Part shown: one piece after another, positions 3,487 through 57,482 of the stretch
How positions within the stretch are numbered: the first letter of the stretch is position 1
Layout of the letters: each line of letters begins with the position of its first letter
NCBI GenBank assembly: GCA_002269645.1
Contig: NIVC01000087.1
Span: 186,001 to 250,000 of the forward strand
DNA length: 64,000 nt
Source: Macrostomum lignano
Lineage: Eukaryota
Direction of reading: 5' to 3'
Notes under the pieces: generated by a model
The model's input: the letters and a program-made list of their open reading frames with translations, nothing else
Databases searched by the model: none
Told to the model about the DNA's origin: nothing
Made by a program: the position numbers and the translations under genes

Positions 3487-3714
3487 TGTTAGTCTAGGAA
3501 AACTGAGTCAAGTCATGTTTGCAAGCGAAGGAGAATACCATTGAAAGATCTCTACCGAAGTGACGAAAGTATTTATTTGACTACATAACACGAAACCACG
3601 TACATTAGTAGACAAACGCCATCCGATTGGCTGGGGGTTAAAACCATGCACACTGGCAAGCACAAATGTACACAGGTAGGGGTAAAACGATAGCGCGCAA
3701 GAATGATCAGTCAC

Positions 3715-3802
<88 letters not shown>

Positions 3803-3840
3803 AGTGAAACAACATGAAAAACCAAAGTACAACCCCAACA
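3487..3840 (-). repeat. 3' LTR of the Gypsy element, contains a long (GA)n
   Basis: Direct repeat of 7817-8122. Confidence 0.95.
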
Positions 3841-3893
3841 CTGCTCCCCCCAAAAGCAGCAAAACAAAAAACAAAAGAAACCAAGACCTGTCC

Positions 3894-6800
3894 TTAGACC
3901 TTATAACAAACAGGTTTACGAGGCCGCAAATAATACGAGCTTTGGGGCTGGAGAGTCTCATCTCCAGAACTCAGCGGGGAGTCACAGTCAGTCACCTCAG
4001 GTTCACGCAGCTCCGAGTCAGAGCCAGCCTTGGCACCCTGAATCGATAGCCCAGCCTGATCCTCGGATCCAGCCGCCTCGGTCAGCCGCCGATCGGCCTC
4101 CGCCTCCGGGCGGCAGCTCCATTGGTTTGCGTGCGCCATCCGCAGTCCACCGTCTGGTAGGTCAGCTGAGGTCACCAGAGCTGTGTTCCGGCCGTGCTGC
4201 ACGATGAACTTGGCCGGAACCGGAGCCGTGCCAGGCCGAGCCCTCAGCCAGATGGAGTCACCCACCTGCTCGGTCATCGTCAGCGGATGGCGCAGCCGGC
4301 GTCCCCACATGAGAATGTCCGGCGAGCTGGAACGATTCCCGCTAGGCCTGCTGGTGCGAATGGTTAGGAGCAATTTCTGCAGGAACTGGTCAAATGGGAC
4401 CACTTCTTCCACGTCTTCAGCCCGCCTTTGAGACTCCTCACCAACCGCTCAGCCTGCCCGTTCGATGCCGGATGGTACGGTGGGGTGTGCATCTCCTGGC
4501 AGCCGACACTGTTCAGCCACTGCGAGACTCTTTCCGACCTGAACTCGGGCGCATTATCCGACACTAGCGTCCGAGGCACTCCATTTCTGGCGAACACCGC
4601 TCTCAGCACTCTCAGCACACTGCCCGCAGACCTGTCTGGGACCTGGACAACTTCTGGCCAACCCGAGTATGCATCAGACAGCAACAGTAGCAAGCCCACT
4701 CCTGGCACCTCACAGTGGTCCATGTGGACCCGGGACCACGGCTCGCTCTCGGATGGCCAGATGTCAATTTTCCGCTGAACCACCGGCCGTCTTTCAGCGC
4801 ACAGCTGACACCGCTCAACAAACTGACGGACATCGCGATCCAGTCCAGGCCACCAGAACTCCTTAGACACATGGGCCTTCGTATTTTCCGCGCTCGGGTG
4901 CACCTCATCATGCGCGGTCTCCAAAATGCGCCGCCGGAGAATGGTCGGAGGCACCACCCTGGTACCGTGGATGACCAGCCCGTTCTCCACAGACAACGCT
5001 TCCCGACACGCTTTGTACGGCCGCTCCAGCTGAGAGACCTGACCCCACCGGCCTGTCCTGATTCTCTGCTGGAGTCTTTGAAGCAGTGAACACCGGGAAG
5101 TACTTTCTCTCAGCTCCTCCACGGTAACCAAGCCTCCGTCAGTGATCAACTCAGTCTGATGAACAGACTCCGTCTCAGGATCGAGGTTTTCAAAGCTCAG
5201 CCTTGATAGAGCGTCAGCATCCTGCATCTTCTTTCCCGGCACATATTCAATCTCGTAATCATAAGCCGATAGCCGCAGAGCCCACCGGGTTAGTCTGGCA
5301 GAAACAGTCTTTGGAAGATTCTTGCAAGGATTCAGAATAAACTTCAAAGGCTCGTGATCGGTCTGCAGAATGAATTTCTTCCCTAGCAACATTTTCCGAG
5401 CTCGTTCAACCGCCCAAACAATAGCCAGCGCTTCTCTCTCGATGTTTGAGTAGTTGGTTTCTGCCTGTGTGAGCGCCCTGGACATGAACATGACGGGATG
5501 TCCAGACTGGACCAGCACCGCGCCCAAGGATTTCTCGCTCGCATCAACTCGAAGACAGACAGGCGCGGAAACATCAAACGGCTTGATGCACGGGTTTGAG
5601 GCCAGACTCCTTTTGATCTCCGAAAATGCCGCCTCAGCCACCGCGTTCCATTGAAAAACCCGGTCACCGCGGCGAAGCTCCTGAAGAGGCCGACATTTCT
5701 CAGAAAAGTTCGGAACCAGCCGTCCATAAAATTGAGCCAGTCCTAGAAATCTCTCCAAATCTTTCTTGGTCTTCGGCACCTCGACATCCATCACACGTTT
5801 CACCATGCCCGGATCGGGTTTTATTCCTTCATCATCAATAATGTGACCAAGAAACTTCAGGCTGTTGGCTTCCATCACGCACTTCGCCTCGTTGATCTTG
5901 ACATTTGCGGCCTTTAACTTGTTGAGCACCTGCTCCCTAATTTTCTGCAACTCTGCCCGGCTCGCAGCACCGATCAGCACATCGTCCTGATATACTATGA
6001 CACATGGATGGTCTCCCAGGAGCTTTTCCATCACACGTTGAAAAACAGATGGCGACACCTTAATGCCATACGGCAACCGGTTAAACCTGTAGCAACCAAA
6101 CGGAGTGTTTATGGTGGTCACCGCCTTCGATTCCTCATCCAGGGGAACCTGATAGTACGCATCCGATAGGTCCAACCGACAGAACAGCTTCTTGTTGGCC
6201 ATTTTCGAAAAGGCTGTCTCAATCGAGGGAGTGAGGAAGGTCTGGTCTTGAACCAACCGATTAACAGCCGAATAATCTCCACAAATTCTCACGGATGCCC
6301 GATCTGACTTCACCGTCACCACAATTGGACTGCCCCATTCCGACGACATCACCTTCTCAACGATTCCAGCACTTTCCATCAGGTCCAGCTCCTTCTTAAC
6401 CAAGTGCTTCAGCGCTAAGGGCAGTTCTCTGGCTGCCTGGAAAATTGGCCTAGCTCCAGCACAAAGACGGATTTCTCCCGTAGCACCAGATATTCCCAAC
6501 AAGCTCTCATACCTGTTGCTGGCGGCTGACTCATCAGAACTGGCATGGTGCACCGGTGCGAGGACCAGCAGATTCCGGCCGAGCAGCCCAAACTCCTGTT
6601 GGCAGTCGATGACGGGCAGCTCTGCCGCCTTGAAGCGGCCGATGTTGCCAGTGGTCTCCACCAGGCATTCCAGAACGCCCATCTGTCTCATAACGTGTCC
6701 GTCATACGCCAGCATGCGCGACTTCGCCGACTTCAGCGGGGGCCTTCCGAGCTCATTCCAGATCCTTCGTGAGATTAACGAGCAGGAGGCACCGCTGTCC

Positions 6801-7794
6801 TTCTCCATCAGTACTTCTCTGTGATTGATTTTCACAGTGCAGAACTCGGCAGGCTTTCCTTCTCCACAGTAGAATACGGGCTCATCACGATAGGAGTCTT
6901 CTGGACTCAGCTGAGTGCCGACTGCTTCAGCTGGGGCAGCGAAGTGGGTCCTGGCACCGCGGCACACACGGCCAAAGTGGCCAGGCTTTCCACATTGATT
7001 GCAGGTGGCTCTCAGGGCTCGGCAGTCAGCGGGCTTCTGGTGCGATCTCAACCCGCAACGCTGACAGCGCTGGTGTCCGAAGTTCTGCTTCTGCCTCATA
7101 ACCGAATTAACGTTGACAGAGCCGGAGCTATCCGGATGGCAGTGAGCTTCATCAGCCGTAGTCAGACCCGCGGTCGACAGCGACCTAGCCTGGTGCACCA
7201 CCGAATCCACGAGAGTCGAGTGAGCAGCAGCCTGGGACCCAGCTGAAAAGTTGCTGACCATCAGCAGCTGCTGAACATATTCTGTGACCTGATCGACCGT
7301 CAGTTCTTGAGTAACTTCACGCTCGAGCACCTTGTTCCTGATGTTCGAGTTGGCCAGACCGGCAATGAGCCGCATCTTGATGAGCGCTTCGGCGGGGTCC
7401 GCTCCTTCCTTTTTCAGGCTCTCGAACTCGCATACGACGGCTTGCTCCCTGAGACGAGCGGCATAGCTGGTGACGGTTTCGCCTTCGGCCTGGCGCATAG
7501 ACATGAAGGCTGTCCTCTCAGCGATCTGCAGTTTCTTCTTGGGCTCCACAAACGCCAGTAGGCATTGCTTGATTTCAGACCATTTCATCGCAGACGGGTT
7601 TTTGGAGCAACCAGCTGCTTGACTTTTATGAGCTCAGCGACCCCGAGGCAGCCCATGAAAGCGTCGGTCAGCGCTCGTCTCTCGTCGGTATCTTCGACTC
7701 CTTTGGATCTGGCCTGGGCGTCAAATACTTCAACCCAGGCGCGAAGCTCATCTATGTTGCTCAACGGCAGCGTCTCTCTCAATTTGATGCTCAT
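3894..7794 (-). CDS. Gag-Pol polyprotein (two CCHC knuckles, aspartic protease, RT, RNase H, integrase), broken by two frameshifts near 7590 and 4400
   Basis: ORFs 7585-7794, 4364-7588 and 3894-4412. Motifs: CQRCGLRSHQKPADC and CNQCGKPGHFGRVC, DSGAS protease, LDLSDAYYQ and YQDD RT, VDAS...YSNIEREALAI RNase H, HHCC and D,D,E (MDH, SDN, AER) integrase. Confidence 0.93.
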
Positions 7795-7816
7795 GATCCT
7801 GCTTGCGACGCCAAAA

Positions 7817-8044
7817 TGTTAGTCTAGGAAAACTGAGTCAAGTCATGTTTGCAAGCGAAGGAGAATACCATTGAAAGATCTCTACCGAAGTGACGAAAGT
7901 ATTTATTTGACTACATAACACGAAACCACGTACATTAGTAGACAAACGCCATCCGATTGGCTGGGGGTTAAAACCATGCACACTGGCAAGCACAAATGTA
8001 CACAGGTAGGGGTAAAACGATAGCGCGCAAGAATGATCAGTCAC

Positions 8045-8084
<40 letters not shown>

Positions 8085-13260: not shown

Positions 13261-29779
<16,519 letters not shown>

Positions 29780-30959
29780 CACTTTTTAAGGTATTAAATA
29801 TAATAGGGGATTTAGACTTGCGTATGGAGCACAGCCATTGATTAATTGGCCTGGTATAAACCTATTAAATATTTAATTTAATTGGTATTATATTCCTTGC
29901 AAAATTGCTTAAATAAATAATTTTATAAATAGGGATTACGAATTAATCACGAAATGATTTTACTTGTTATGGGTGTGAATCGCAGTAGTCACGAGTTAGT
30001 TGGGTCAAAGGACTGTGGATGAAAGTTTCAAAATAGTGAATCAGTGTAGGTTTCTAACAATAATCGAGTTCGAGTTCAACGCCGGCGCGCGCGCTCTTAA
30101 TTCTTTTTGCTGTTGTTTAATAGGGCCGCCCAGTTTCCACGAACTACAAATGTTAAAACAACTTATTTTTAACAGTTGAAACAAATGTTTAAAATGCTAT
30201 TGTAATACGGTTATATATGCTTTCCTTTTCTTCAAATTCTTTACAAAAACAATCGATTTTTTTCAAGTCCTAGTTTAATATCTTATTTTAATCTCGTTAT
30301 TTATCGTTATTCTTATTCGCGATCCCTAGATACCAAACTAAAGCGTTGCGTATTAAACATATTACTAGACCGCTTGGGAGCGTAACACAGAGTGCGCTAC
30401 GCTCCCGTGTAGACAGCCGTTGTGTTACGCTCCGCTCCCGTCTAGGCGGTAATCTAAAGGGTGCGCGATCAATTCAAGTCTTTATCATTTTCACAATAAA
30501 TCTTAGGACGAAAACTTATCTCAAATATATAGTTCGTATTTTTAGTATATTTAGATTAGAGATTTAGTATATTTAGACTGGCCAAACAGGCTGTTTGCCT
30601 GAGCCAATGTACTACTACTACTGAACTACATGTAGTTTACAATTATAACAAATTCTTATCCTAAAAAATAGGCTACAGTAAAGTAAGCGCTAATGAAGCT
30701 CCCATGCATATTTTTATAGCTAATTTTAGAGATAAAAAAGAGATAAAAAATTGAATAATCAATCAAATTACTTTTACGCTACTTGCTGCTAATTTCAATT
30801 GCATAATACTTGTACAATACATTGGTTCGACTCCTGTGTGCAATGAGCAGAACAAAAGGGAATTTATCTTGCATTGCACTGTACTGCCATATGACATGGG
30901 CATCAGAAATAGCGTCCTTCGATCTTATATTAGTTGTCCATTGGGTATGAATTAGCAGC

Positions 30960-43104: not shown

Positions 43105-43711
43105 TCAGCCGAAGTTTGTCCTGAGCAGGCTGCTCACCTGATGTGCGGTTCGCGCCACCAGGGATGCCACTGCCCAGTACAGCGACTGAAACTTAGTGAA
43201 TCGCGGATCCTCGGTCCGCTCCAGCAAAAGCAGATAGGCCTCTATGGTCGTAAGTGGTTCTTCTGCACGCACCATAGTCCTGGCGATGTCTAGCAGCCAC
43301 CGCCAGTCGGCCTGATGCTGAAGCGGCCATGGCCACGTTCTTACGGCGACGGCCAGCTGCTCCAGGGTTAGCGCGTCAGCTCTGGGACAGCGAACATCGG
43401 CGCCAGCAGCACAGACGCTGTGTTGGACAGCGGAGCCAGACACACGGTGCACGTCATGATGTCACGTGCCCCGTACCGCTGAAGGCAGCTGAAACACACC
43501 CAATGCCGATTCGAACAGATTTGTACATTGGGCTGGTCACCGCAGAGGGCGCATTGGACCCGCGGCCTGCGACAGACCGGGCAGGCGGAAAGAATCGTCA
43601 CCTCGCCAATTTCTCCAGCCCGTTCGTCGCAGGGGAAGCACACCATTCACAAGTCGGGAGCATCGGCTCCCGTGCCTCGAGGCAGCAAGGGCAGGTATCC
43701 ATCTCGGCCAT
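43105..43711 (-). pseudogene. Accessory double-RING gene B, frameshifted copy
   Basis: Near-identical to 50607-51239 but split over ORFs 43598-43783, 43368-43646 and 43105-43452. Confidence 0.85.
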
Positions 43712-43789: not shown

Positions 43790-44329
43790 TACTGGTGAGA
43801 CCTAAAAAGCCAAATAAAATAGCCTCGTGAGAGAAGTAATCGTTTAAGCGCGTGGCAGTATACGTGTAGCGTCCAGTGAAAGGTTTCATAGTCATGCAAA
43901 AACTGCAGTAAATGTCGTTCAATCTCCAAGGGTGACATATGACGCAAAAATCCTTGATTTCTATGAGCGTATAATCCGACACCATTTCTTAAAAGTGCTT
44001 TCGCGGGGCATACTATTACATAAGGGGCATCCTATAATGCCCCTACTAGCGGTTTGCTTCAAACAGTGCATGCAAATAAAATGTCCGTGGTTACAGTATT
44101 GAAACGTGCGCCAAGAATAACAATAGGCGCATTGTCGCAAACTACCTCTACAGAGGGGACAATTCTGCCATGGCTGAATATAATGAGAATTGCTTAAACA
44201 TTGTCCGCAAACTTTATGGTCATTGATGCAAATAGTCGATGGCTTGACAGCCAAGTCATCAGTTAAACATATCGGGCAGTCATATAGCTGCTGAGGTTGG
44301 GGCGCCTGTTTCGACAGTGCGTTGCCCAT
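43790..44329 (-). pseudogene. Accessory double-RING gene A (MGNALSK), both RINGs intact, C-terminal deletion/frameshift
   Basis: ORF 43961-44341 nearly identical to 51357-51977 over the first ~125 aa. Confidence 0.85.
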
Positions 44330-44470
44330 AATTGTCGTCACTTGTAGTCTTGTAGTCTTAAGTCGCTCGGATTAGTCGCCTCTTACGACAAGCTTGCGAA
44401 GCTGTAGAGCTATTCTGACCCGGTCTCTACACGGGTTTGTTCTCGAAACTGCCACTGCCACTGCCCAGTA

Positions 44471-45031
44471 CTACGGCTGAAACCGTACGAAGCGAGGGTC
44501 CTCCGTCCGCTCCAGCAGCTGCAAGTAGGCGTCGATGGCGGTGAGACCGGGTTGATGTCTCGCCAGGTCTCTAGCTATGTCAAGCAAATGCCGCCACGCC
44601 GTCTGATGCTGGAGCGGCCACGGCCATGACCGCACAGCGATCGCCAGCTGCTCCAAGGTTAGGAGGTCCGGTTCGGTGAGCGACAACTCCGGCACTACCG
44701 CCATAGTAGCCAGCAGCAGTGCCGTGGAATGCATCACCGGCTCCAGACACACGGTGCACGTTTGGATATCTCGTGCACCGTACCTATGGAGACAGCCGGC
44801 ACAGGCCCAGTGCCGACTTGGACAGATTTGGTACTGGGGCTGCTCGCCGCACAATGCACATGTGACCCTCGCCCTGCGACATGTTGGGCACGCCGACAGC
44901 ATGGTGATCTCGCCGGTCAGCTGTCGGGCCGCGGTGTCGCAAGAGAGACACACTTGGTGTCCCCATTCGCATGTCGGGACCGTTTCGTCCCGCGTCTCCA
45001 AGCAGCAGGGGCATGCGTCGTCAGCGTTCAT
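44471..45031 (-). CDS. Diverged accessory double-RING gene B' (186 aa, C-terminally truncated)
   Basis: All 16 putative zinc ligands conserved relative to gene B; CCCACAG directly before the ATG. Confidence 0.8.
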   Translation of the reverse strand: MNADDACPCCLETRDETVPTCEWGHQVCLSCDTAARQLTGEITMLSACPTCRRARVTCALCGEQPQYQICPSRHWACAGCLHRYGARDIQTCTVCLEPVMHSTALLLATMAVVPELSLTEPDLLTLEQLAIAVRSWPWPLQHQTAWRHLLDIARDLARHQPGLTAIDAYLQLLERTEDPRFVRFQP

Positions 45032-45099: not shown

Positions 45100-45761
45100 T
45101 CATTGTGGAAACCGTAGAAGCCATATGAAGTAATTGCGTGATAAAATAAGCTGTTTTAACGCATGACAATAAATATGCAGTGTCCAATGATAGGCGTTAT
45201 GGGCTTGTAAAGTATTTTGCAAATGCCGTGCTATCTCGAGGGGTAGCATATGTCGTAATATGCCCGGATGATTATGTGCGTAAAGAATCAATTCGTAGCG
45301 CGAGCGCTGAGCACAACGGGGTACTGGCCAAAACTCCAGCAACCGTTCTATACTCATGGCTGTCAGGGTATGAATATTATATACAGATAAACAGCGTGAT
45401 ACGTCCGGCTTTATGCGACACCACTTCTTGAAAGTGCTGTCCGTCGGCATGGTGTTACAGACAGGGCACCCTATGATGCCTCTGCTAGCGGTGCGTTTCA
45501 AGCACTGCATGCAGATAAAATGATTGTGACGACAGTATTGAAAGGTGCGCCATGAGTAACAATAGGCGCACTGCGTCAGACTACTCCTACATAGGGGGTA
45601 GAGTTGCCAAGATTGAATATAATGCGCGTCACGTAAGCATGTTCCACAGATGCGATGATTATTTATACAAATGGTTGGTGGCTTTATCCACAAATCTTCT
45701 TCCAGACAGACAGGGCATGTTGCTGTACTTGGGGCGCCTGCTTGGACAGTGCGTTGCCCAT
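45100..45761 (-). CDS. Diverged accessory double-RING gene A' (MGNALSK start at 45761; one frameshift near 45715)
   Basis: ORF 45100-45693 gives both RINGs and the full C-terminus; the upstream frame gives MGNALSKQAPQVQQ, and CPVCLEEDLWIKPP follows after the shift. Confidence 0.75.
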
Positions 45762-45849
45762 TGTCGGCGTTGCTTGAAGTTGAAGTCGCTCAGATTAGTC
45801 GCCTCTTACGACAAGCTTGCGAAGCTGTAGAGCTATTCTGACCCGGTCT

Positions 45850-46125
45850 CTACACGGGTTTTGTCTTTTTTTGTAGCTTAACGAGGTCGCAGATTTTAGC
45901 CGTGTGGCTGGCTCTCGTTCGCCGTTTGAGTCTCCTCGTTCTTCGTTGCGATGTGGCGGTTCGTTGAACGTGTGCGATCAGCGTTGTTGCGTGGTTGCGT
46001 GACGAACTTTTGAATGGACGTCGGGACTTCCACATATTGCGATGGCAGTAGTTGCTGTGCCAATAGGTTTGGTGGCTGGAAGTCTCGTCCAAACATTAGA
46101 AAGAATGGCGTATTGTCCGTTCGTT
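45850..46125 (-). pseudogene. Deleted integrase C-terminal fragment of family A
   Basis: Matches 52090-52220 and 52500-52620 (MFGRDFQPPNLLAQQLLPSQYVEVPTSIQKFVTQ joined to NADRTRSTNRHIATK). Confidence 0.85.
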
Positions 46126-47337: not shown

Positions 47338-48292
47338 TTAGGGGGAGGGAATAAGGTAATTAAGGCGACCACCGTATGCGGAGGCAATCCAAGCGTCGGA
47401 CCAGCCAGCGGTAGTCGCGGGGTGAACCGTTTTCCGCGACACGAGTGATTTGCCTTCGAGATTGGGGCAAGGGGAATCGCTGACGTCAAAACAGGGGTCG
47501 TCGACGAACTCAGGGTGACCAACAATGTGTTCCCGATGAAACCGGGGAAGGGTGAGGAAGTAGGCTTCAATGGCCTGACCCCTAGGACTGCCGCGATGGC
47601 GCGTCCAGAAGTGCGACCAGAAGTGGTGGCGGAGTTGGTGTGAGGCAAGGTTAAACAGGCTCGAGGGTGAGTCGGAAACGGGGGAAACAAAGCTCTGGAG
47701 CAATTGGTCGTAGCGTTCACACTCCGAGTCATTAATTTTGTGACAGTATATTTGGCGGAGATATTTGTAGGTAAGAGGACCGGCGGTGTGAAAATCGACG
47801 CAACGCAGAGTGCGGAAGAGTACCTCGAAGTACTGGCGTTGAATGGCTAATTCGACGATTACGGACTTAAAGGCTCCTCGCAGGGGTGGGATATGGAGGC
47901 CCTCGAGGTGGAATAGCATATTCTATCTGCCCCGAAGTGGTCGACCAGAAGTGGTGGCGGAGTTGGTGTGAGGCAAGGTTAAACAGGCTCGAGGGTGAGT
48001 CGGAAACGGGGGGAACAAAGCTCTGGAGCAATTGATCATATCGTTCACATTCCATGTCATCGAGTTTGTTACGGTACACTCGGCGGAGATATTCGTAGTT
48101 GAGAGGATTGGCGGTGTGGAAATTGACACAACGCAGTGTGCGGAAGAGCACCTCGAACTCCTGGCGGTGGATGGCTAGCTCGACGATAGCAGACTTAAAG
48201 GTTCCTCGCAGGGGTGGGGTATGGAGGCCCTCGAGGTGGAATAGAATATTGTCTATCTGTCCCGGGATGTAGCATTGGCAGCTGTAGGAATC
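47338..48292 (-). CDS. 3' part of orphan ORF C, containing a diverged ~330-bp internal duplication
   Basis: ORFs 47867-48151 and 47338-47919 repeat FHLEGLH.PPLRG.FKS.IVELAI...HQLRHHFWS. Confidence 0.6.
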
Positions 48293-48296
48293 GTGG

Positions 48297-49166
48297 TGAT
48301 GTGTTCCTTATTACCCGACTTTCGATAATCAAGGAACAATCACTTCTAGCTCAATAGCTAGGCAACCCAGTAAGTCAATTAAAGGTACTTCTTACCTTGA
48401 CGTCGCTTGCAGATATCTCTTCTGTAGTCTTCGAGTAGATCTCGCTTGGATCTCTATGTGATCTCGTAGATCAGGCGCCTTGATTCTTCAGTTGCTCTGG
48501 TCCTGGTTCCTCTTGTACTTCCGATAAGTTCCTCCGGCCGGTATCTTCAGTCAGGACCAATCAGAGGCCTCGTATTAACAATGGGTACCCTGCGCCGAAC
48601 TGCAGTTTGAATTAAGCCTCCTTCTTTTAGTAGTGCCTCGATGCACTCTAGGTATAGCTTCGGAAACCACTGATAGTCCTCTAAGATCTATCAGGGGCAG
48701 TCCTTCTGGAGACTGCAACCAATGGAGTCTAAACAGACTCAAGAGTCTCAACAGACTCAAATAGACTCAAGTCTCAATAGACTTGAGCGAGACGTCTCTA
48801 ACACAACGGGCGCAAATAAGGAAGGCTTACCGCGACGACTCGACCGAGTCTCGATTGACTTGGTATATCAGGAAGTCCTCCTAAGGCTTCCTCTTCGGAG
48901 CTTCTCCTCTCGTCGGGAGTTGGCTCCTGGTCCGCTTCGGACCGCTTGTATTTATAGGCAAGTTTTTGGTCCGGAATAGTATCATGACAATCCACGTGTT
49001 GCGCTAAAAGGGGAAATGGCTCATTGCGTATCATTTTGGTAACATCTTCTTCTGGTAGCGCAATTCATTCAAAGCTTAGGCGCGCATGCGTGCACTTACT
49101 TACTTGTAGTAGCATTATACGATTATCTTCTTTTAACCTTTTTAACGGGAGGTAGAACACTCTACA
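48297..49166 (-). repeat. Family-A 3' LTR (outer)
   Basis: Near-identical to 56340-57209. Confidence 0.95.
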
Positions 49167-49510: not shown

Positions 49511-50363
49511 TGATGTTTTCCTTATTACCTGACTTTCGATAATCAAGGAACAATCACTTCTAGCTCAGCAGCTAGGCAACCCAGTAACTCAACAGAAGGT
49601 ATTCAATTACCTTGAGTCCTTTGGAGATCTCTCGGAGTAGTTCTCGATTTGCTTTAGTTGCAGGTGTAGTCACTTCTGACTTTCGTTTGTAGATCGGGTC
49701 CGATTCTTCTTTCTTCTTCAAATAGTTCCGGCCGGATTCTGTCGCTCGGACCAATGGGAAGCTTCCGAATTAACAATGGGATCCCTGCGCCGAACTGCGG
49801 TCTAAATTAAGCCTCCTTCTTCTAGCAGTGCCTCTATGCACTCTAGGTATAGCTTCGGAAACCACTGATAGTCCTCTAAGATCTATCAGGGGCAGTCCTT
49901 CTGGAGACTGCAACCAATGGAGTCTAAACAGACTCAAGAGTCTCAACAGACTCAAATAGACTCAAGTCTCAATAGACTTGAGCGAGACGTCTCTAACACA
50001 ACGGCGCAAATAAGGAAGGCTTACCGCGACGACTCGACCGAGTCTCGATTGACTTGGTATATCAGGAAGTCCTCCTAAGGCTTCCTCTTCGGAGCGCTCC
50101 TCTTCCGTGGGGAGAATGGCTCCGGTACCGCTTCAGATCGCTTGTATTTATAGGCAACTTTTTGTTCCAAAATAGCATCATTACAATTCTTGTGTTGCGC
50201 TAAAAGGGGAAAATGGCTCATGGCGTATTATTCTGGTAACATCTTTTTCTGGTAGCGTGATTCATTCAAAGCTTAGGCGCACATGCGTGTACTTACTTAC
50301 TTGTAGTAGCATTATACGATTATCTTCTTTTTTTTGTTTTTGCGGGAGGCAGAACACTCTACA
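49511..50363 (-). repeat. Family-A 3' LTR (inner), positioned inside a remnant of gene B
   Basis: The left flank 49340-49510 is the 3' end of gene B; a PPT lies on its upstream side. Confidence 0.92.
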
Positions 50364-50606: not shown

Positions 50607-51239
50607 TCAGCCGAAGCTTGTCCTGAGCAGGCTGCTCACCTGATGTGCGGTTCGCGCCACCAGGGATGCCACTGCCCAGTACAGCGACTGAAACTTAGTG
50701 AATCGCGGATCCTCGGTCCGCTCCAGCAAAAGCAGATAGGCCTCTATGGTCGTAAGCGGTTCTGCTGTACGCACCATAGTCCTGGCGATGTCTAGCAGCC
50801 ACCGCCAGTCGGCCTGATGCTGAAGCGGCCATGGCCACGTTCGTACGGCGACGGCCAGCTGTTCCAGGGTTAGCTCATCCGGCTCCGCCAGCGTCAGCTC
50901 CGGTACGGCGAGCATCGGCGCCAGTAGTACGGATGCTGTGTTGGACAGCGGAGCCAGGCACACGGTGCACGTCATGATGTCTCGTGCACCGTACCGCTGA
51001 AGACAGCTGAAACACACCCAATGCCGATTTGAACAGAGTCGTACATTGGGCTGGTCGCCGCAAAGGGCACATTGGACCCGCGGTCTGCGACAGACGGGGC
51101 AGGCGGTAAGGATCGTCACGTCGCCAATTTCTCGCGCCCGCCCGTCGCAGGGGAAGCACTCCTGGTGCCCCCATTCACAAGTCGGGAGCATCGGCTCCCG
51201 TGCCTCGAGGCAGCAGGGGCAGGTATCCATCTCGGTCAT
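50607..51239 (-). CDS. Accessory gene B: tandem double RING-finger protein with helical C-terminus (210 aa, intact)
   Basis: RING1 C-x2-C-x10-C-x3-H-x2-C-x2-C-x15-C-x2-C; 6-aa linker; RING2 C-x2-C-x8-C-x3-H-x2-C-x2-C-x11-C-x2-C. Confidence 0.88.
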   Translation of the reverse strand: MTEMDTCPCCLEAREPMLPTCEWGHQECFPCDGRAREIGDVTILTACPVCRRPRVQCALCGDQPNVRLCSNRHWVCFSCLQRYGARDIMTCTVCLAPLSNTASVLLAPMLAVPELTLAEPDELTLEQLAVAVRTWPWPLQHQADWRWLLDIARTMVRTAEPLTTIEAYLLLLERTEDPRFTKFQSLYWAVASLVARTAHQVSSLLRTSFG

Positions 51240-51309: not shown

Positions 51310-51965
51310 CTATCGGTGAGACCTAAAAAGCCAAATAAAATAGCTACGTGAGAGCACTAATCGTTTAAGCGCGTGGCAGTATACGTGTAGCGTCCAGTGA
51401 AATGATTCATGGTCATGCAAAAACTGCCGCAACTGTCGCTCAATCTCCAAGGGTGACATATGACGCAAAAATCCTTGATTTCTATGAGCGTATAAGAGTA
51501 GCTCGTCGCGACCGCTGAACGAAGCGAGGTACTGGCCAAAACTTCGATACTCATAGCGGTTAAGGTGTGCATAATGTAAACGGATAAACAACGCGCTGGG
51601 TCAGGTATAATACGACACCATTTCTTAAAAGTGTTTTCGCGGGGCATACTGTTACATAAGGGGCATCCTATAATGCCCCTACTAGCGGTTTGCTTCAAAC
51701 AGTGCATGCAAATAAAATGTTGATGGTTACAATATTGAAACGTGCGCCAAGAATAACAATAGGCGCATTGTCGCAAACTATCTCTACAGAGGGGACAATT
51801 CTGCCATGGCTGAATATAGTGTGAATCACTTAAACATTGTCCGCAAACTTTATGTCCATTGATGCAAATAGTCGGTGGCTTGACAGCCAAGTCATCAGTT
51901 AAACATATCGGGCAGTCATATAGCTGCTGAGGCTGGGGCGCCTGTTTTGACAGTGCGTTGCCCAT
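51310..51965 (-). CDS. Accessory gene A: putative N-myristoylated tandem double RING-finger protein (frameshift near 51535)
   Basis: MGNALSK; RING1 C-x2-C-x12-C-x3-H-x2-C-x2-C-x12-C-x2-C; 6-aa linker; RING2 with the same spacing as in gene B. The C-terminus continues in ORF 51310-51591, matching A'. Confidence 0.85.
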
Positions 51966-52085
51966 AATTGTCGTCAATTTGTCGCTGTCTTTGTGTCGCT
52001 CGGATTAGTCGCCTTTTACGACAAGCTTGCGAAGCTGTAGTGCTATTCTTTATCCCGGTCACTACACGGGGTTGTTCTCGAAACT

Positions 52086-55000
52086 CTAGCGTGGTCGTAG
52101 GTTGTAGCCATGTGGCTGGCTCACATCTGTCGTTTGAGTCTCCTCGTGCTTCGTCGCGATGTGGCGGTTCGTTGATCGCGTGCGATTAGCGTTGTCTAGT
52201 GTCGGTAGAAACGTCGCTGTGTCAGTGTTGATCTTCTTTAGTCGATGAATGTGTACGTAGAACTGGTGCTGATGTGGATCTTGTACATTAGCCAGGCGTG
52301 CCGTTGTCGGTGACGTTAGTTGGACCACTCGATGGGGTCCTTTATACTTCTGTGCATGTTTATGCGTCTGCTGCGGCGGGTAGTGTAGGTAAACGATGTC
52401 GCCGGCCGTCAGGGTTGTCGATCTCGCGTCGTTGCCGGTGGTCAGAGCCACCTGGTTGTCAATGTTGTGCTTAGCGATCTTCCATGCGAGGTGTAGTTGC
52501 GTGACGAATTTCTGAATGGAAGTCGGTACTTCCACGTACTGCGATGGTAGCAATTGCTGTGCGAGCAGATTCGGCGGTTGGAAGTCTCGTCCAAACATTA
52601 GGAAGAATGGCGTATTGTCCGTTGATCGATGAATAGCGCTGTTGTAGGCCATTGTTACAGATTGCAGGTAGATGATCCAGTCTTCCGGCTGTTGGTGCGC
52701 GAAATGTGTAATCATGTCGTGCAGGTTGCGGTGAAACCGTTCAACCATGTTTGCCTTCGGATTGTAGGTCGATGTGTAGATCTGCGTAATGTTGAGAATC
52801 CTTACGACTTGCTGAAACAGTTGCGATGTAAACTGCGATCCGTTGTCCGATGTGAGGTTCTTCGGCGTGCCGTACTTGCAAATGATTTCGTTGAAGAAAC
52901 TCATTGCCACTGTCTGAGCTGTGATGTCCGGTATCGGTATGGCGATAGCAAACTTCGAGAAGATATCCAAGGCGGTTAGAATGTAGGTGTAGGCGATGCC
53001 CTGGAGACAGCTCGGTGGCAGTGGTCCGGTGATGTCGATGCTTAGACAGTCCATTGTAGTCGACTTCGGAATGGACTGTAGCTGCGGTTTCTGTCGTCGT
53101 CCTGTCTTTGATGCAGCACATGAATGGCAGTTGTTGCAATACTGCTTGATGTCGCCATACATAGTTGGCCAAAAGTAGTATTGTTCCACTCTCGCGATGG
53201 TCTTTGCGGCCGACAGGTGTCCAGCTAGTGGGTTGTCGTGCAGCTCGTTGAGAATTGCTTGCCGAAACGAATATGTTACGTAGATCTTAGGTTTATTGTC
53301 GCTCATCCAGTAGAGCCGTGACTTATTGATTGTTAGGTGTTGTCGTTGCTTGCGTAGGAATTTTCGTTCCATGGGACTGAGTTTGATGTTCTTGTCGTCG
53401 TCTTTAACCGCTTGGTAGAAGTTGTCGCGCTCGGTTTCATCCACCAACTCCTTGATGTTAGGGATTGGATGAATGGCGTTGACTTCATAGGCTCTTGACA
53501 GGGCGTCCGCGGCTTTGTTGGTAATTCCTGGTTTGTAGACGAGTTTGTAGTTGTAATCCTGGATCTTGAGTGTCATCCTGATGAGTCGGTTGTTGGTCTG
53601 TAGTGTAATCTTCTTTGGTTTCGTCTGGTTTGTCTTGAAGTAGCTGCATTTGATGTCGGTTGGTATCTTGTAGATCATCGGTTGGATATGCGCATCCGTT
53701 GGACAAATCATTGGCTTTTCCGTTGCCGTTGCTTTGGCGACTACTGCTATCAGTAGTATCACGATGATCCAGTATAGCCAGTTTTTCCACTTTTTGGACC
53801 TTGCCGTTGTCTTTGCTGGCATTGGCCGCGATCGCCATTCGTTATCTTCCATGTCCGCATCATATCCTTCCGGTTGTTCCATTGGCTGTTTCAGGCGGAA
53901 GGCTTCTGATTCGCTTTGCTTTTTGGTTATTTCAGTATCTTCGTCTGCAGCTTCTTCCGATGTTTCTGTTGTTTCACTCCATTGCGTTTGGTATCTTTTC
54001 TCTGTCTTGTAGTCGACCGTTTGAATATAGGCTTCACCATTTCGTTTGTATCGGATCTCGTAGCATTCGTCGCTGTCGGAACTCGGCTTTTCTTTTATCT
54101 GTTCTTCTTCCATTTCTTCATCTTTCCATTGTATTTCGTAGCCTTGATCGCTGTCGGAGCTTAGATTTTCCGCTCCCAGTTCTTCCTGCATTCCTTCTTC
54201 GGCTCGGTATCCGCTCGTGTCATCATGCACCTCGCAGTCGTGATCGTTGCCGTAACTTATACATTCTTCTTCTTCCTTCATTTCTTTGTCTTTCGTGCTT
54301 GTTTTGTCGTCATCCACTGTTGTCGATTCATAGTTGTTTTCTCTGCCAGTCTTCATCTTTTCTTCGTTGCCGGTGTCGCTCTCCGCCTCCTCCCTTTTCT
54401 TGTGATTTACTTTCTTCCTGTTTTCTCTGCTGTCTCCGGTGGTCTCTTTTAATTTGATCATTTCGGTTTCATTCGTCTCTTCTGTCTTGTCAGTGTTGTC
54501 CTCGTGCGTTGTCTTTTTTTCGATCAGGCTGATGTCAAGTTCCGGGACTGTGAAGTCCATTTCCAAGTCGTCAATTGTGAACACTTGCTGTTCCTGCTGC
54601 TCATTTTCCGGTGTGTACGTGATGGCATTCGCGTATCGTGGCATTGCTTGCGTCGGCTGTCTTTGTGTGTACCTGACGTTGCGTGGCCTGTAGCCATTAT
54701 TTCTGAAGCGGCCTTCGTTTCCGAAGCGGCCATCATTTCCGGAGCGGTCATTATTTCCGAAGCGTCTATCATTTCCGAGGCGTCTCATGCCTTGTTGTTG
54801 GCGATTTTGATACTGCTGCCATGGTTTCTGCGGCTTCTGATTGTTGAATATCTGTCGCGGCTTGTCGTATCTTGTTGACCAATGAGGACAATTAATCTGA
54901 TAATGTCCTTCTTGTCCGCAGTAGTAACATCTGGCTGAGGCTTGTTCATTTCGTCTTTTTTGTTCGGCGATAGCAGCTGTCTGGTGCTGCATTAATTTGT

Positions 55001-55118
55001 TTAATTGCTGCGTCAGTTTCTGCACTTCATTGTTGCCTGTCGTCATTAATGGGGCACTGGCTTCCCATTGCATTCCGCAACGCAAAAGGTCTTCTTCGGT
55101 TTCGATATTTTCACGCAA
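52086..55118 (-). CDS. Gag C-terminus (CCHC) - acidic linker - hydrophobic segment - [PR/RT/RNaseH deleted] - integrase
   Basis: CYYCGQEGHYQINC; WLYWIIVILLIAVVAKATA; RNase H tail YKPGITNKAADALSR; HHCC (ELHDNPLAGH...CNNCHSC); SIDITG, TSDNGSQF, MVERFHR; KYKGPHRV. No DTG/DSG protease and no YxDD motif. Confidence 0.9.
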   Translation of the reverse strand: MRENIETEEDLLRCGMQWEASAPLMTTGNNEVQKLTQQLNKLMQHQTAAIAEQKRRNEQASARCYYCGQEGHYQINCPHWSTRYDKPRQIFNNQKPQKPWQQYQNRQQQGMRRLGNDRRFGNNDRSGNDGRFGNEGRFRNNGYRPRNVRYTQRQPTQAMPRYANAITYTPENEQQEQQVFTIDDLEMDFTVPELDISLIEKKTTHEDNTDKTEETNETEMIKLKETTGDSRENRKKVNHKKREEAESDTGNEEKMKTGRENNYESTTVDDDKTSTKDKEMKEEEECISYGNDHDCEVHDDTSGYRAEEGMQEELGAENLSSDSDQGYEIQWKDEEMEEEQIKEKPSSDSDECYEIRYKRNGEAYIQTVDYKTEKRYQTQWSETTETSEEAADEDTEITKKQSESEAFRLKQPMEQPEGYDADMEDNEWRSRPMPAKTTARSKKWKNWLYWIIVILLIAVVAKATATEKPMICPTDAHIQPMIYKIPTDIKCSYFKTNQTKPKKITLQTNNRLIRMTLKIQDYNYKLVYKPGITNKAADALSRAYEVNAIHPIPNIKELVDETERDNFYQAVKDDDKNIKLSPMERKFLRKQRQHLTINKSRLYWMSDNKPKIYVTYSFRQAILNELHDNPLAGHLSAAKTIARVEQYYFWPTMYGDIKQYCNNCHSCAASKTGRRQKPQLQSIPKSTTMDCLSIDITGPLPPSCLQGIAYTYILTALDIFSKFAIAIPIPDITAQTVAMSFFNEIICKYGTPKNLTSDNGSQFTSQLFQQVVRILNITQIYTSTYNPKANMVERFHRNLHDMITHFAHQQPEDWIIYLQSVTMAYNSAIHRSTDNTPFFLMFGRDFQPPNLLAQQLLPSQYVEVPTSIQKFVTQLHLAWKIAKHNIDNQVALTTGNDARSTTLTAGDIVYLHYPPQQTHKHAQKYKGPHRVVQLTSPTTARLANVQDPHQHQFYVHIHRLKKINTDTATFLPTLDNANRTRSTNRHIATKHEETQTTDVSQPHGYNLRPR

Positions 55119-55122
55119 AAGT

Positions 55123-55572
55123 CTATCCGAAGTGACGGCTGTGCGTTTTTATTACGTGCAAGATGAGGTTTTGTTCGCGATCCATCAATCGCTGTCTTTC
55201 TCTGGCGGCCAATTCTGCCGCTCCCAGTGGCGGTTGGTCCGCCGCTTGCAGCGGTGGCTGATGCAGTGCCTTAATTATCTGGCGGATATCGTCCACAAAG
55301 GCGAGGAAGGATTCTGTTGCTTGCATCCTTCTGTTATGTAACTTGTGCAGCAGCACTGATCTGTTTGTGCCGCAACGGTTGAAATGCGCGCGCAGTTGAA
55401 TGATTAGTGCTGGATAATTTTGCTGTGTTGCTGCATCCAGCTTGCCGTAAATTTCTCGCGCAGTACCTTGGAGAAGAGGTGGCAGCAGCTGTGCCTTCTC
55501 TGGATTTTGTAGGTTGTATTCCCTACATACCAGGTCAAAATGGTCGACGAATGTGTTAAAATCTTTCTCCAT
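55123..55572 (-). CDS. Gag N-terminal/capsid region of family A
   Basis: DFNTFVDHFDLVCREYNL...LLPPLLQGTAREIY...; homologous to the gag at 60702-61487. Confidence 0.8.
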   Translation of the reverse strand: MEKDFNTFVDHFDLVCREYNLQNPEKAQLLPPLLQGTAREIYGKLDAATQQNYPALIIQLRAHFNRCGTNRSVLLHKLHNRRMQATESFLAFVDDIRQIIKALHQPPLQAADQPPLGAAELAARERQRLMDREQNLILHVIKTHSRHFG

Positions 55573-56339
55573 CGAGAAAGTACCGACCGTTTCTTTGATG
55601 TCTCTGTGTACCGTTGGATTGCGCCGCCCATGTTGTTGATAGGATAGAACGGTAGTTCAGATCTGGATCGATTTGTAACGGATCGTCCAGTGTGGTGTTT
55701 GCCTCGGAATAAACCTCGACTGTAACGAATTGCCTTGTGGTGTCGATTTGTTATTCGCTGGCCTCGGATGCGGTGTGGCTTGCTGCCACTGGTTGTCCTC
55801 AAATGAACTTGTTCTGTTCGCTTGCTGATTTCGCACTTATGCGGCGTCCCGCAAAGTGTATCTTCAAGTTGGGATGGACTTGTCTTTTGCTTTGCAAAGG
55901 CTTTTTCTCGTCTGTGATTCTCTCTCTTTGTCAATTAACTCCGCTCTTCACGAAGTTTCAATTAATTTCGGTTTGTTTTAGTTTTTGTGCCGGCAAAGTG
56001 TTTCAGTTATTTTTTGTTTGTTTTGCGTCGACGATTTTTATTTTCGGTTTGTTTTCAGTGTACCGATGAATTTAATTTCGGTTTATTTTAAACTCACACT
56101 TGCTCGAGCTCGTCAAAACAAAAATTTAACACGCGTGCTCAAACTGTACTCAAATTGGACAGGTGCTCAAACCTGTACACCAAATTTTTACTCGAGTTTC
56201 ACAACGTACGGACTTAAAAAGTGTTAACTCTAACACGTGCGCGCAAAATTAATGAAGTCGCTCTGTCGTCACGTTACAATAGCTTGATCAGGGCTATTGC
56301 TCAAAGTTTGAGTAGTGCCGAGAGGGCGAGATCACCAAT

Positions 56340-57209
56340 TGATGTGTTCCTTATTACCCGACTTTCGATAATCAAGGAACAATCACTTCTAGCTCAATAG
56401 CTAGGCAACCCAGTAAGTCAATTAAAGGTACTTCTTACCTTGACGTCGCTTGCAGATATCTCTTCTGTAGTCTTCGAGTAGATCTCGCTTGGATCTCTAT
56501 GTGATCTCGTAGATCAGGCGCCTTGATTCTTCAGTTGCTCTGGTCCTGGTTCCTCTTGTACTTCCGATAAGTTCCTCCGGCCGGTATCTTCAGTCAGGAC
56601 CAATCAGAGGCCTCGTATTAACAATGGGTACCCTGCGCCGAACTGCGGTTTGAATTAAGCCTCCTTCTTCTAGTAGTGCCTCGATGCACTCTAGGTATAG
56701 CTCCGGAAACCACTGATAGTCCTCTAAGATCTATCAGGGGCAGTCCTTCTGGAGACTGCAACCAATGGAGTCTAAACAGACTCAAGAGTCTCAACAGACT
56801 CAAATAGACTCAAGTCTCAATAGACTTGAGCGAGACGTCTCTAACACAACGGGCGCAAATAAGGAAGGCTTACCGCAACAACTCGACCGAGTCTCGATTG
56901 ACTTGGTGATCAGGAAGTCCTCCTAAGGCTTCCTCTACGGAGCTTCTCCTCTCGTCGGGAGTTGGCTCCTGGTCCGCTTCGGACCGCTTGTATTTATAGG
57001 CAAGTTTTTGGTCCGGAATAGTATTATGACAATCCACGTGTTGCGCTAAAAGGGGAAATGGCTCATTGCGTATCATTTTGGTAACATCTTCTTCTGGTAG
57101 CGCAATTCATTCAAAGCTTAGGCGCGCATGCGTGTACTTACTTACTTGTAGTAGCATTATACGATTATCTTCTTTTAACCTTTTTTAACGGGAGGTAGAA
57201 CACTCTACA
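56340..57209 (-). repeat. Family-A 5' LTR (TATA at about 56991-56998, splice donor at 56438)
   Basis: Followed on the minus strand by AT plus a TGG-starting PBS. Confidence 0.95.
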
Positions 57210-57482
57210 GCGGTTCAGGTAGGACTCAGCAATGGTGAAGGTGAAGTCGGCTACGACATCGAAGCGTCCGTCACAATTGAAGAGATCATAAAGTAGAGAA
57301 TCAGGAATAGCAGGCTTAACAGTGCGAGGACACGGAAAGGGCGAAAGATAGGAGGGGTGATAATAAATGAAGTTACGACGATGTGGGCAATAGTACGTTT
57401 CACACAGGTAGTTGAATAACGGAGTATCATCAAAAGCAGTAAGGCCCTGGATGGCGATGCGCATTTGCCTGAATATGTTCAT
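57210..57482 (-). CDS. 5' part (91 codons) of orphan ORF C, interrupted by the 48297-57209 insertion
   Basis: Joins in frame to 48292 when the insertion and one TSD copy are removed. Confidence 0.7.

Follow-up and report, generated by a model that had tools for sequence, protein, structure and literature searches.

Flatworm errantiviruses carry a gB-type Env and have the gene order GAG-ENV-POL (Chary and Hayashi, PMC13524379). For one family from the worm Macrostomum lignano, Mlig_errantivirus_2, the available part of that paper gives 16 copies, 864-nt LTRs, and an internal length of 8,863 nt. Invertebrate errantiviruses are usually viewed as simple gag-pol-env elements. Myristoylation motifs on Ty3/gypsy accessory ORFs are already known from sORF2 of MDG1-group retrotransposons, where MGxxxS/T is present in only some members (4/6; PMC11952523, available part). 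Among RING proteins, the arenavirus Z proteins carry late domains with few exceptions (PMC3497041), and the membrane binding of RNF11 needs myristate as well as palmitate (PMC7697665), as far as the accessible portions of these two papers go.

The locus analyzed here lies on the minus strand of a 64,000-nt (64-kb) stretch of M. lignano DNA, hereafter the window, to which all coordinates refer. It contains two accessory genes, A and B, in a Ty3/gypsy element, likely an errantivirus, with the order 870-nt LTR, primer site, frameshifted gag, 995-codon ORF, A, B, purine tract, and LTR (Table 1). The integrase was nearest to Ty3 among solved structures. The 995-codon ORF has no protease or reverse transcriptase (RT), and a deletion junction was located near 53601, where contigs of other copies continue in different sequence. 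The hydrophobic stretch of this ORF is likely the putative signal peptide of a deleted env gene between gag and pol. A Cys-containing stub, together with the signal-peptide-like stretch (53601-53830, minus strand), likely represents the beginning of a gB-type env that has been deleted; this stub between gag and the pol remnant gave no Pfam or Atlas match. A YPxL-like motif in the gag frame (55405-55416, minus strand) may be due to chance.

The carrier resembles Mlig_errantivirus_2, as described in the available part of PMC13524379, in the host label, the primer site, the LTR length (853-870 nt here vs 864 nt), and the signal-peptide-like stretch between gag and pol. Unlike that family, the copy here lacks protease, RT, and nearly all of env. 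Based on the primer site, LTR length, and env-like stretch, the carrier is likely a deleted copy of the Mlig_errantivirus_2 family or of a sister family, and the carrier family is likely envelope-bearing. Calculated from the published internal length of Mlig_errantivirus_2, a 3' region as long as the one here (1,722 nt) would leave 962 codons to encode protease, RT, RNase H, and the remainder of Env, and a short one about 1,370. Judged by usual domain sizes, this leans towards a short A without B in the Mlig_errantivirus_2 copy.

Table 1. Features of the A/B locus and its carrier element (positions within the window)
Feature	Positions	Strand	Remarks
5' LTR	56340..57209	-	TG...CA, 870 nt; AAG/GTAA donor-like site at 56438
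Primer-binding site	56326..56337	-	12/12 nt identical to that listed for Mlig_errantivirus_2
995-codon ORF	52086..55073	-	Gag end (CCHC), acidic spacer, signal-peptide-like stretch, integrase
Hydrophobic stretch	53736..53780	-	Residues 432-446, mean hydropathy 2.83
A leader, 120 nt	51966..52085	-	From pol stop to A; lacks ATG; TAA in frame at 52005-52007
Candidate H-type pseudoknot (4+7 bp) and two hairpins	52008..52070	-	Also at ~45800-45860 and ~44375-44435
ORF A	51357..51965	-	202 codons as it stands; family-like to ~codon 141; frameshifting deletion near 51545
A codons 1-7, predicted N-myristoylation signal	51945..51965	-	Met-Gly-Asn-Ala-Leu-Ser-Lys; residues identical at 44329 and 45761
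RING finger 1 of A	51783..51914	-	Cys18-Arg61, C3HC4, C-P-x-C-R end
RING finger 2 of A	51651..51767	-	Cys67-Asn105; last Cys without following Arg
ORF B	50607..51239	-	Open, 210 aa; A paralogue with two RINGs and a helical tail
LTR after B	49511..50363	-	Preceded by purine tract; 88% identical to 5' LTR
Further LTR after B fragment	48297..49166	-	860/869 nt identical to 5' LTR
Diverged A copy	45100..45761	-	Frameshift at about codon 15; codons 12-140 are 70% identical (nt)
Diverged B copy	44471..45031	-	186 codons; cut by junction to next leader
Third A copy	43961..44329	-	122 codons; ended by internal deletion and stop
Third B copy	43106..43711	-	Two frameshifting deletions

Between 39900 and 60700, the carrier family accounts for eight or more complete or fragmentary LTRs (70-99% identity), all on one strand and with mosaic internal parts; this region may be a nest or a piRNA-cluster-like locus. 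A junction at 44456/44450, which begins at the first base past the pol stop (52085), places the third A cassette after the diverged B. It is also found in a DNA run and may have formed where the template was switched at a shorter RNA's 5' end. A 12-nt complement of the primer site lies in the diverged B copy (~44900-44915, minus strand) and in no other B copy; it is probably due to chance. Two ORFs beside LTRs (47338-48264 and 57165-57482, minus strand; 193 and 105 codons) had no Pfam match, and the 193-codon ORF sits in a 330-nt tandem duplication. Elsewhere, the window contains exons of a host (animal) p70 S6 kinase (24175-24756, 14988-15788, and 29522-29785, minus strand); about 290 tandem copies of an 18-nt unit (18456-23900) separate exons of this gene. 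A separate Ty3/gypsy element (3487-8082) with one 1074-codon ORF has identical 266-nt LTRs and is thus a recent insertion.

A and B are paralogues with about 25% identity; both have eight zinc ligands in each of their two C3HC4 fingers, and a common tail motif. The structure models (pLDDT 82 for B and 80 for A residues 1-140) had RING folds and helices. Nearly all fold matches of the two proteins were RING or U-box (best Z 5.2 for A and 5.6 for B), and the RING matches, with modest Z-scores of 4-5.6, covered about 50 residues at 2-3 Å. The best Pfam RING match of A had an E-value of 4e-05, and every A and B score was below the curated cut-off. The full HMMER scan yielded 7 hits, two of which (P0006 and P0007) were dropped as generic or low-complexity; P0002, labelled Macrostomum lignano, was retained for its host label only. 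Four Logan proteins (P0001, P0003, P0004, and P0005; 206-214 aa) had the same layout, the nearest being 41% identical. No protein was retrieved when A, B, or the family alignment was used in a word-index search, and searches for related loci in viral or metagenome contigs found none. All three A copies in the window are broken: at about codon 141 (51965 copy), after codon 122 (44329), and at about codon 15 (45761). Contig alignments show a loose end at 51543, by the A-breaking deletion.

In the family alignment, RING1 ended in C-P-x-C-R in 8/8 rows at about 25-45% identity, and the last Cys of RING2 was followed by Arg in 0/8. RING fingers bind E2 enzymes through a signature with a hydrophobic residue in the first Cys pair and a P-x-C-R end, and the Arg of this end has a role in E2 activation. 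By general RING-E2 biochemistry, RING1 is likely the active finger.

The sequence-only reading had reported that all three A copies open with MGNALSKQAPQ, and this was confirmed when the sequences were re-read at the minus-strand ATGs 51965, 45761, and 44329. Its assignment of this start to the N-myristoyltransferase (NMT) consensus also stands: Gly2, Asn3, Ser6, and Lys7 make up the pattern of a good NMT substrate, in which position 3 has to be uncharged (Asn3), position 6 is Ser, and position 7 is basic (Lys7). Peptides co-crystallized with human NMT1 contain Gly-Asn-x-x-Ser-Lys as in A, and in the bound substrate, a salt bridge links Lys7 with Asp471 while the chain from residue 2 to 7 is extended (PMC7048800, available part). 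As a chance test, 477 ATG-started open stretches of at least 60 codons in the window were scanned with a loose and a strict (MGxxx[ST][KR]) myristoylation pattern. The loose pattern matched 4/477 stretches and the strict one 2/477; both strict matches were A copies, so the strict pattern was present in 0/475 other stretches. The 45761 copy is absent from the set due to its early frameshift.

An in-frame stop lies 13-16 codons upstream of the ATG in each of the three A copies, and none of the three leaders contains an ATG. Four codons upstream, the 51965 copy has a TTG and the 44329 copy a GTG; neither codon is shared, and both are missing from the 45761 copy. The ATG is therefore the only start common to the three copies. 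Its context has A at -3 and G at +4, the latter being favored at start sites anyway. The ATG at 51965 is the putative start of A translation. Readthrough of the pol stop into A was ruled out by in-frame stops in three of three leaders.

In the structure model of A, residues 1-10 were coil (pLDDT 50) and the RING part had pLDDT 75-94; the signal is thus predicted to sit on a flexible, extended N-terminal tail. A has its first Cys at residue 18 and the six other alignment rows at residues 5-9, so the motif lies on an added spacer. As for a second membrane signal near the A start, neither a nearby Cys nor a basic cluster was found, with one basic residue in the first 20, and no transmembrane segment was detected in the A pieces (best 19-residue hydropathy 0.78-0.82). 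A single acyl chain binds membranes weakly. B was correctly described as being without Gly2, as position 2 is Thr, Asn, or Ala in its copies. Judged by this N-terminal pattern, intact A is probably myristoylated on Gly2.

Across the three A copies, codons 2-11 had four silent and no replacement changes (p=0.004 if neutral), and constraint on the N-terminal motif at the protein level is supported. Zero replacements in these codons are no rarer than the constraint on the A body predicts (p 0.06-0.31). The dN/dS ratio was 0.22 between the close A copies and 0.15-0.24 between B copies; selection on A and B is purifying.

The diverged copy had been counted as independent support for the motif, which was not borne out, since the silent divergence of its codons 2-11 equals that of the integrase and not that of the A body. 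Between the 51965 and 45761 units, third positions differed at 3/10 sites in codons 2-11, 26/78 in the integrase, and 70/126 in the A body. For the N-terminus, p was 1.0 against the integrase and 0.19 against the body; for the integrase against the body, it was 0.002. The two copies have a second block of 11/11 identity at codons 67-77. The leaders are mosaic, the 44329 copy pairing the leader of the diverged copy with a body like that of the 51965 copy. Recombination may have given the diverged A a start from a closer relative, and in a crossover the first A codons may have moved together with the integrase side. As a possible recombinant, the diverged copy provides weak independent support. 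Contigs in two runs span the A start at about 82% identity, one of them gapless, which indicates a further subfamily.

Conservation of Gly2 across the family was not supported: Gly2 was present in 0/4 outside relatives, whose starts are gene calls. The signal is probably a later add-on, as the distant relatives lack it, and the best reading is that the myristate anchor was gained in one lineage. Long branches dominate the family tree, and the order of gain or loss stays unfixed.

For the expression of A, the leader contained a branch-point-like CTAAT and only weak AG acceptor candidates. In all three B copies, CAG directly precedes the ATG, with a branch-like site 29 nt upstream, and the AAG/GTAA donor-like site was found in 7/7 LTRs checked (56438, 49610, 48395, 40023, 41482, 57839, and 60119, minus strand); B is therefore likely translated from a spliced message. 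The public gene model P0002 (B-like) fuses LTR-coded residues to the B start and omits A. No LTR-to-A or LTR-to-B splice joint was present among the 15 of 54 contig joints listed.

The leader block that can form the predicted structures was present at three places in the window and absent from all of 100 shuffles. All pairs (19/19) were kept in the three copies, one by an A-U/U-A compensatory change. Such a pseudoknot appeared in 3-6 of 2000 shuffles per leader and in 12 other of 2130 window slices. The pair-count shuffle control with three rows was not significant (154/500), and nested folding of the leader was no better than in shuffles (z -0.9 to +0.7). The pseudoknot is thus a candidate only, being found in 12 other slices and drawn from these very sequences. 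It may drive A expression, with an IRES, a nuclease block, or an export or packaging signal as candidate roles. Rfam gave nothing credible over 39500-61000. Hammerhead, HDV-like, twister, and pistol cores, compared with the leader by eye, did not fit.

Our best reading is that A is a RING E3 ubiquitin ligase with a lineage-gained anchor, rather than a matrix protein like arenavirus Z. A would be translated from the ATG at 51965 on a spliced or internally initiated message, and after Met removal, the host NMT would myristoylate Gly2. RING1 would then activate an E2, while RING2 and the helical tail would select the substrate. The target could be a membrane-bound host restriction or signalling protein or, alternatively, Env or Gag of the element itself where assembly takes place. 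The work would be split through the lineage-specific gain, with A at the membrane and B lacking the anchor. For the whole chain, in which myristoylated double-RING A of the errantivirus acts as an E3 ligase at membranes, the probability is put at roughly 0.45, i.e. it is tentative. RNF11 provides a precedent for a myristoylated RING regulator (PMC7697665, available part).

The sequence-only reading had proposed A as an E3 ligase or a budding aid. The ligase branch gained from the C-P-x-C-R end in 8/8 rows; the budding branch lost ground, as A has two RINGs plus a tail, and no late domain (PT/SAP, PPxY, or YPxL) was found in the coding frames of the A pieces, B, and the four relatives. The ligase is favored over a Z-like matrix protein because the ligase signature is family-wide and the anchor is not, and because late domains are absent. 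The context for budding is nevertheless better than that reading knew, since the family is likely envelope-bearing. The likely envelope favors a role for A like that of Z, i.e. a myristoylated RING matrix or budding factor that would link both capsid and gB-type Env to an enveloped particle's membrane. In other copies, contig ends show Met-Ala where gag has its first ATG, and Gag is thus likely without Gly2. Contigs also join A codon ~87 or ~107 to the 3'-LTR-side end, in 3/4 runs each, which suggests short, Z-sized A forms without B; these joints, however, have short sides (23-32 nt) with undetermined letters between them. Z was among the weak look-alikes of A (score 0.85; Z 4.0), though no better ranked than other RINGs. 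Z proteins combine G2, one RING, and a C-terminal late domain (PMC3497041, available part), unlike the two RINGs and tail of A. Gly2 is absent from all outside relatives and from B, and Gag has its own YPxL-like motif. A Z-like role thus appears unlikely, and it is kept in play by the likely envelope, the Met-Ala Gag, and the A-to-3'-end joints. Its specific form, in which an enveloped errantivirus with myristate-less Gag would use A from a pseudoknot-led internal message as a matrix or budding factor and convergent Z analogue, is doubtful to the same degree.

The motif might also be real and yet unused for membrane targeting, reflecting start context and recent shared origin, with A soluble or nuclear like B and active, for example, in RNA export or anti-silencing. 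The integrase-like silent divergence of codons 2-11, the mosaic leaders, the single membrane signal of A, and relatives that do without Gly2 are consistent with this, as is the nuclear export accessory protein of Cer1 (PMC10309623, available part). Against it, the four positions fit the NMT pattern together, a fit found in none of the other stretches, and the spacer is kept without replacement, though low-complexity tails would usually be expected to drift. On balance, we consider this alternative rather unlikely. The remaining explanation accepts myristoylation but assigns it to stability or weak reversible membrane contact; instead of forming a ligase, the RINGs would scaffold a host E2 or E3 or act on it as decoys. 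The missing Arg in RING2, the sub-threshold Pfam scores, and the weak hold of a single acyl chain agree with this explanation, whereas the full C-P-x-C-R end of RING1, kept in every row at about 25-45% identity, argues against it, and it is held to be improbable.

Searches of open-access literature turned up no publication that describes RING accessory genes on elements of this kind. The main text of the errantivirus paper mentions RING, myristoyl, accessory, zinc, matrix, and budding 0 times (PMC13524379), and the available text of the Macrostomum LTR survey has 0 mentions of ORF, RING, or envelope (PMC12801592). Four motifs of the A/B element were absent from the shortened sequences of six heat-shock families in the supplement of that survey. 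The motif by itself is ordinary, and its weight comes from its setting. It bears on how GAG-ENV-POL elements reach the membrane and escape host control, a question that can be tested because M. lignano permits transgenesis (PMC12801592, available part).

The comparisons below follow the available parts of the cited papers. Like arenavirus Z, A has a Gly2 motif, a flexible spacer, and then a RING fold, in an enveloped-virus setting (PMC3497041). Unlike Z, which has a single central RING in 90-99 aa, A has two RINGs and a helical tail in about 200 aa, its Gly2 is not family-wide, and PF03854 gave no match to A at E 0.05. The non-envelope ORF3s of bdelloid LTR elements (PMC5408684) and CERV of Cer1 (PMC10309623) are likewise extra Ty3/gypsy genes, theirs being expressed from spliced messages; their products are a GDSL esterase, a DEDDy nuclease, or an export protein, unlike A, and the available texts report no RING finger or myristoylation. 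The sORF2/FAST-like proteins of MDG1-group retrotransposons also derive from a Ty3/gypsy accessory ORF with a predicted MGxxxS/T (PMC11952523). However, sORF2, which is encoded by elements that lack env, is small, transmembrane, and fusogen-like, whereas A is a zinc-finger protein without a transmembrane segment and lacks the fusogen trait of a single such segment with a polybasic tail. A resembles RNF11 (PMC7697665) and ZNRF2 in having an N-terminal Gly2 motif before a RING acting in ubiquitination at membranes. It differs from them in its tandem C3HC4 fingers, in having no palmitoylatable Cys near the start, and in being borne by a mobile element; no sequence kinship of A to these acylated cellular RING proteins was found. 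With paired double-RING genes under purifying selection, one of them carrying a lipid-anchor signal, the carrier would be a complex element with ubiquitin tools of its own, and the pair is comparable to the accessory genes of vertebrate retroviruses.
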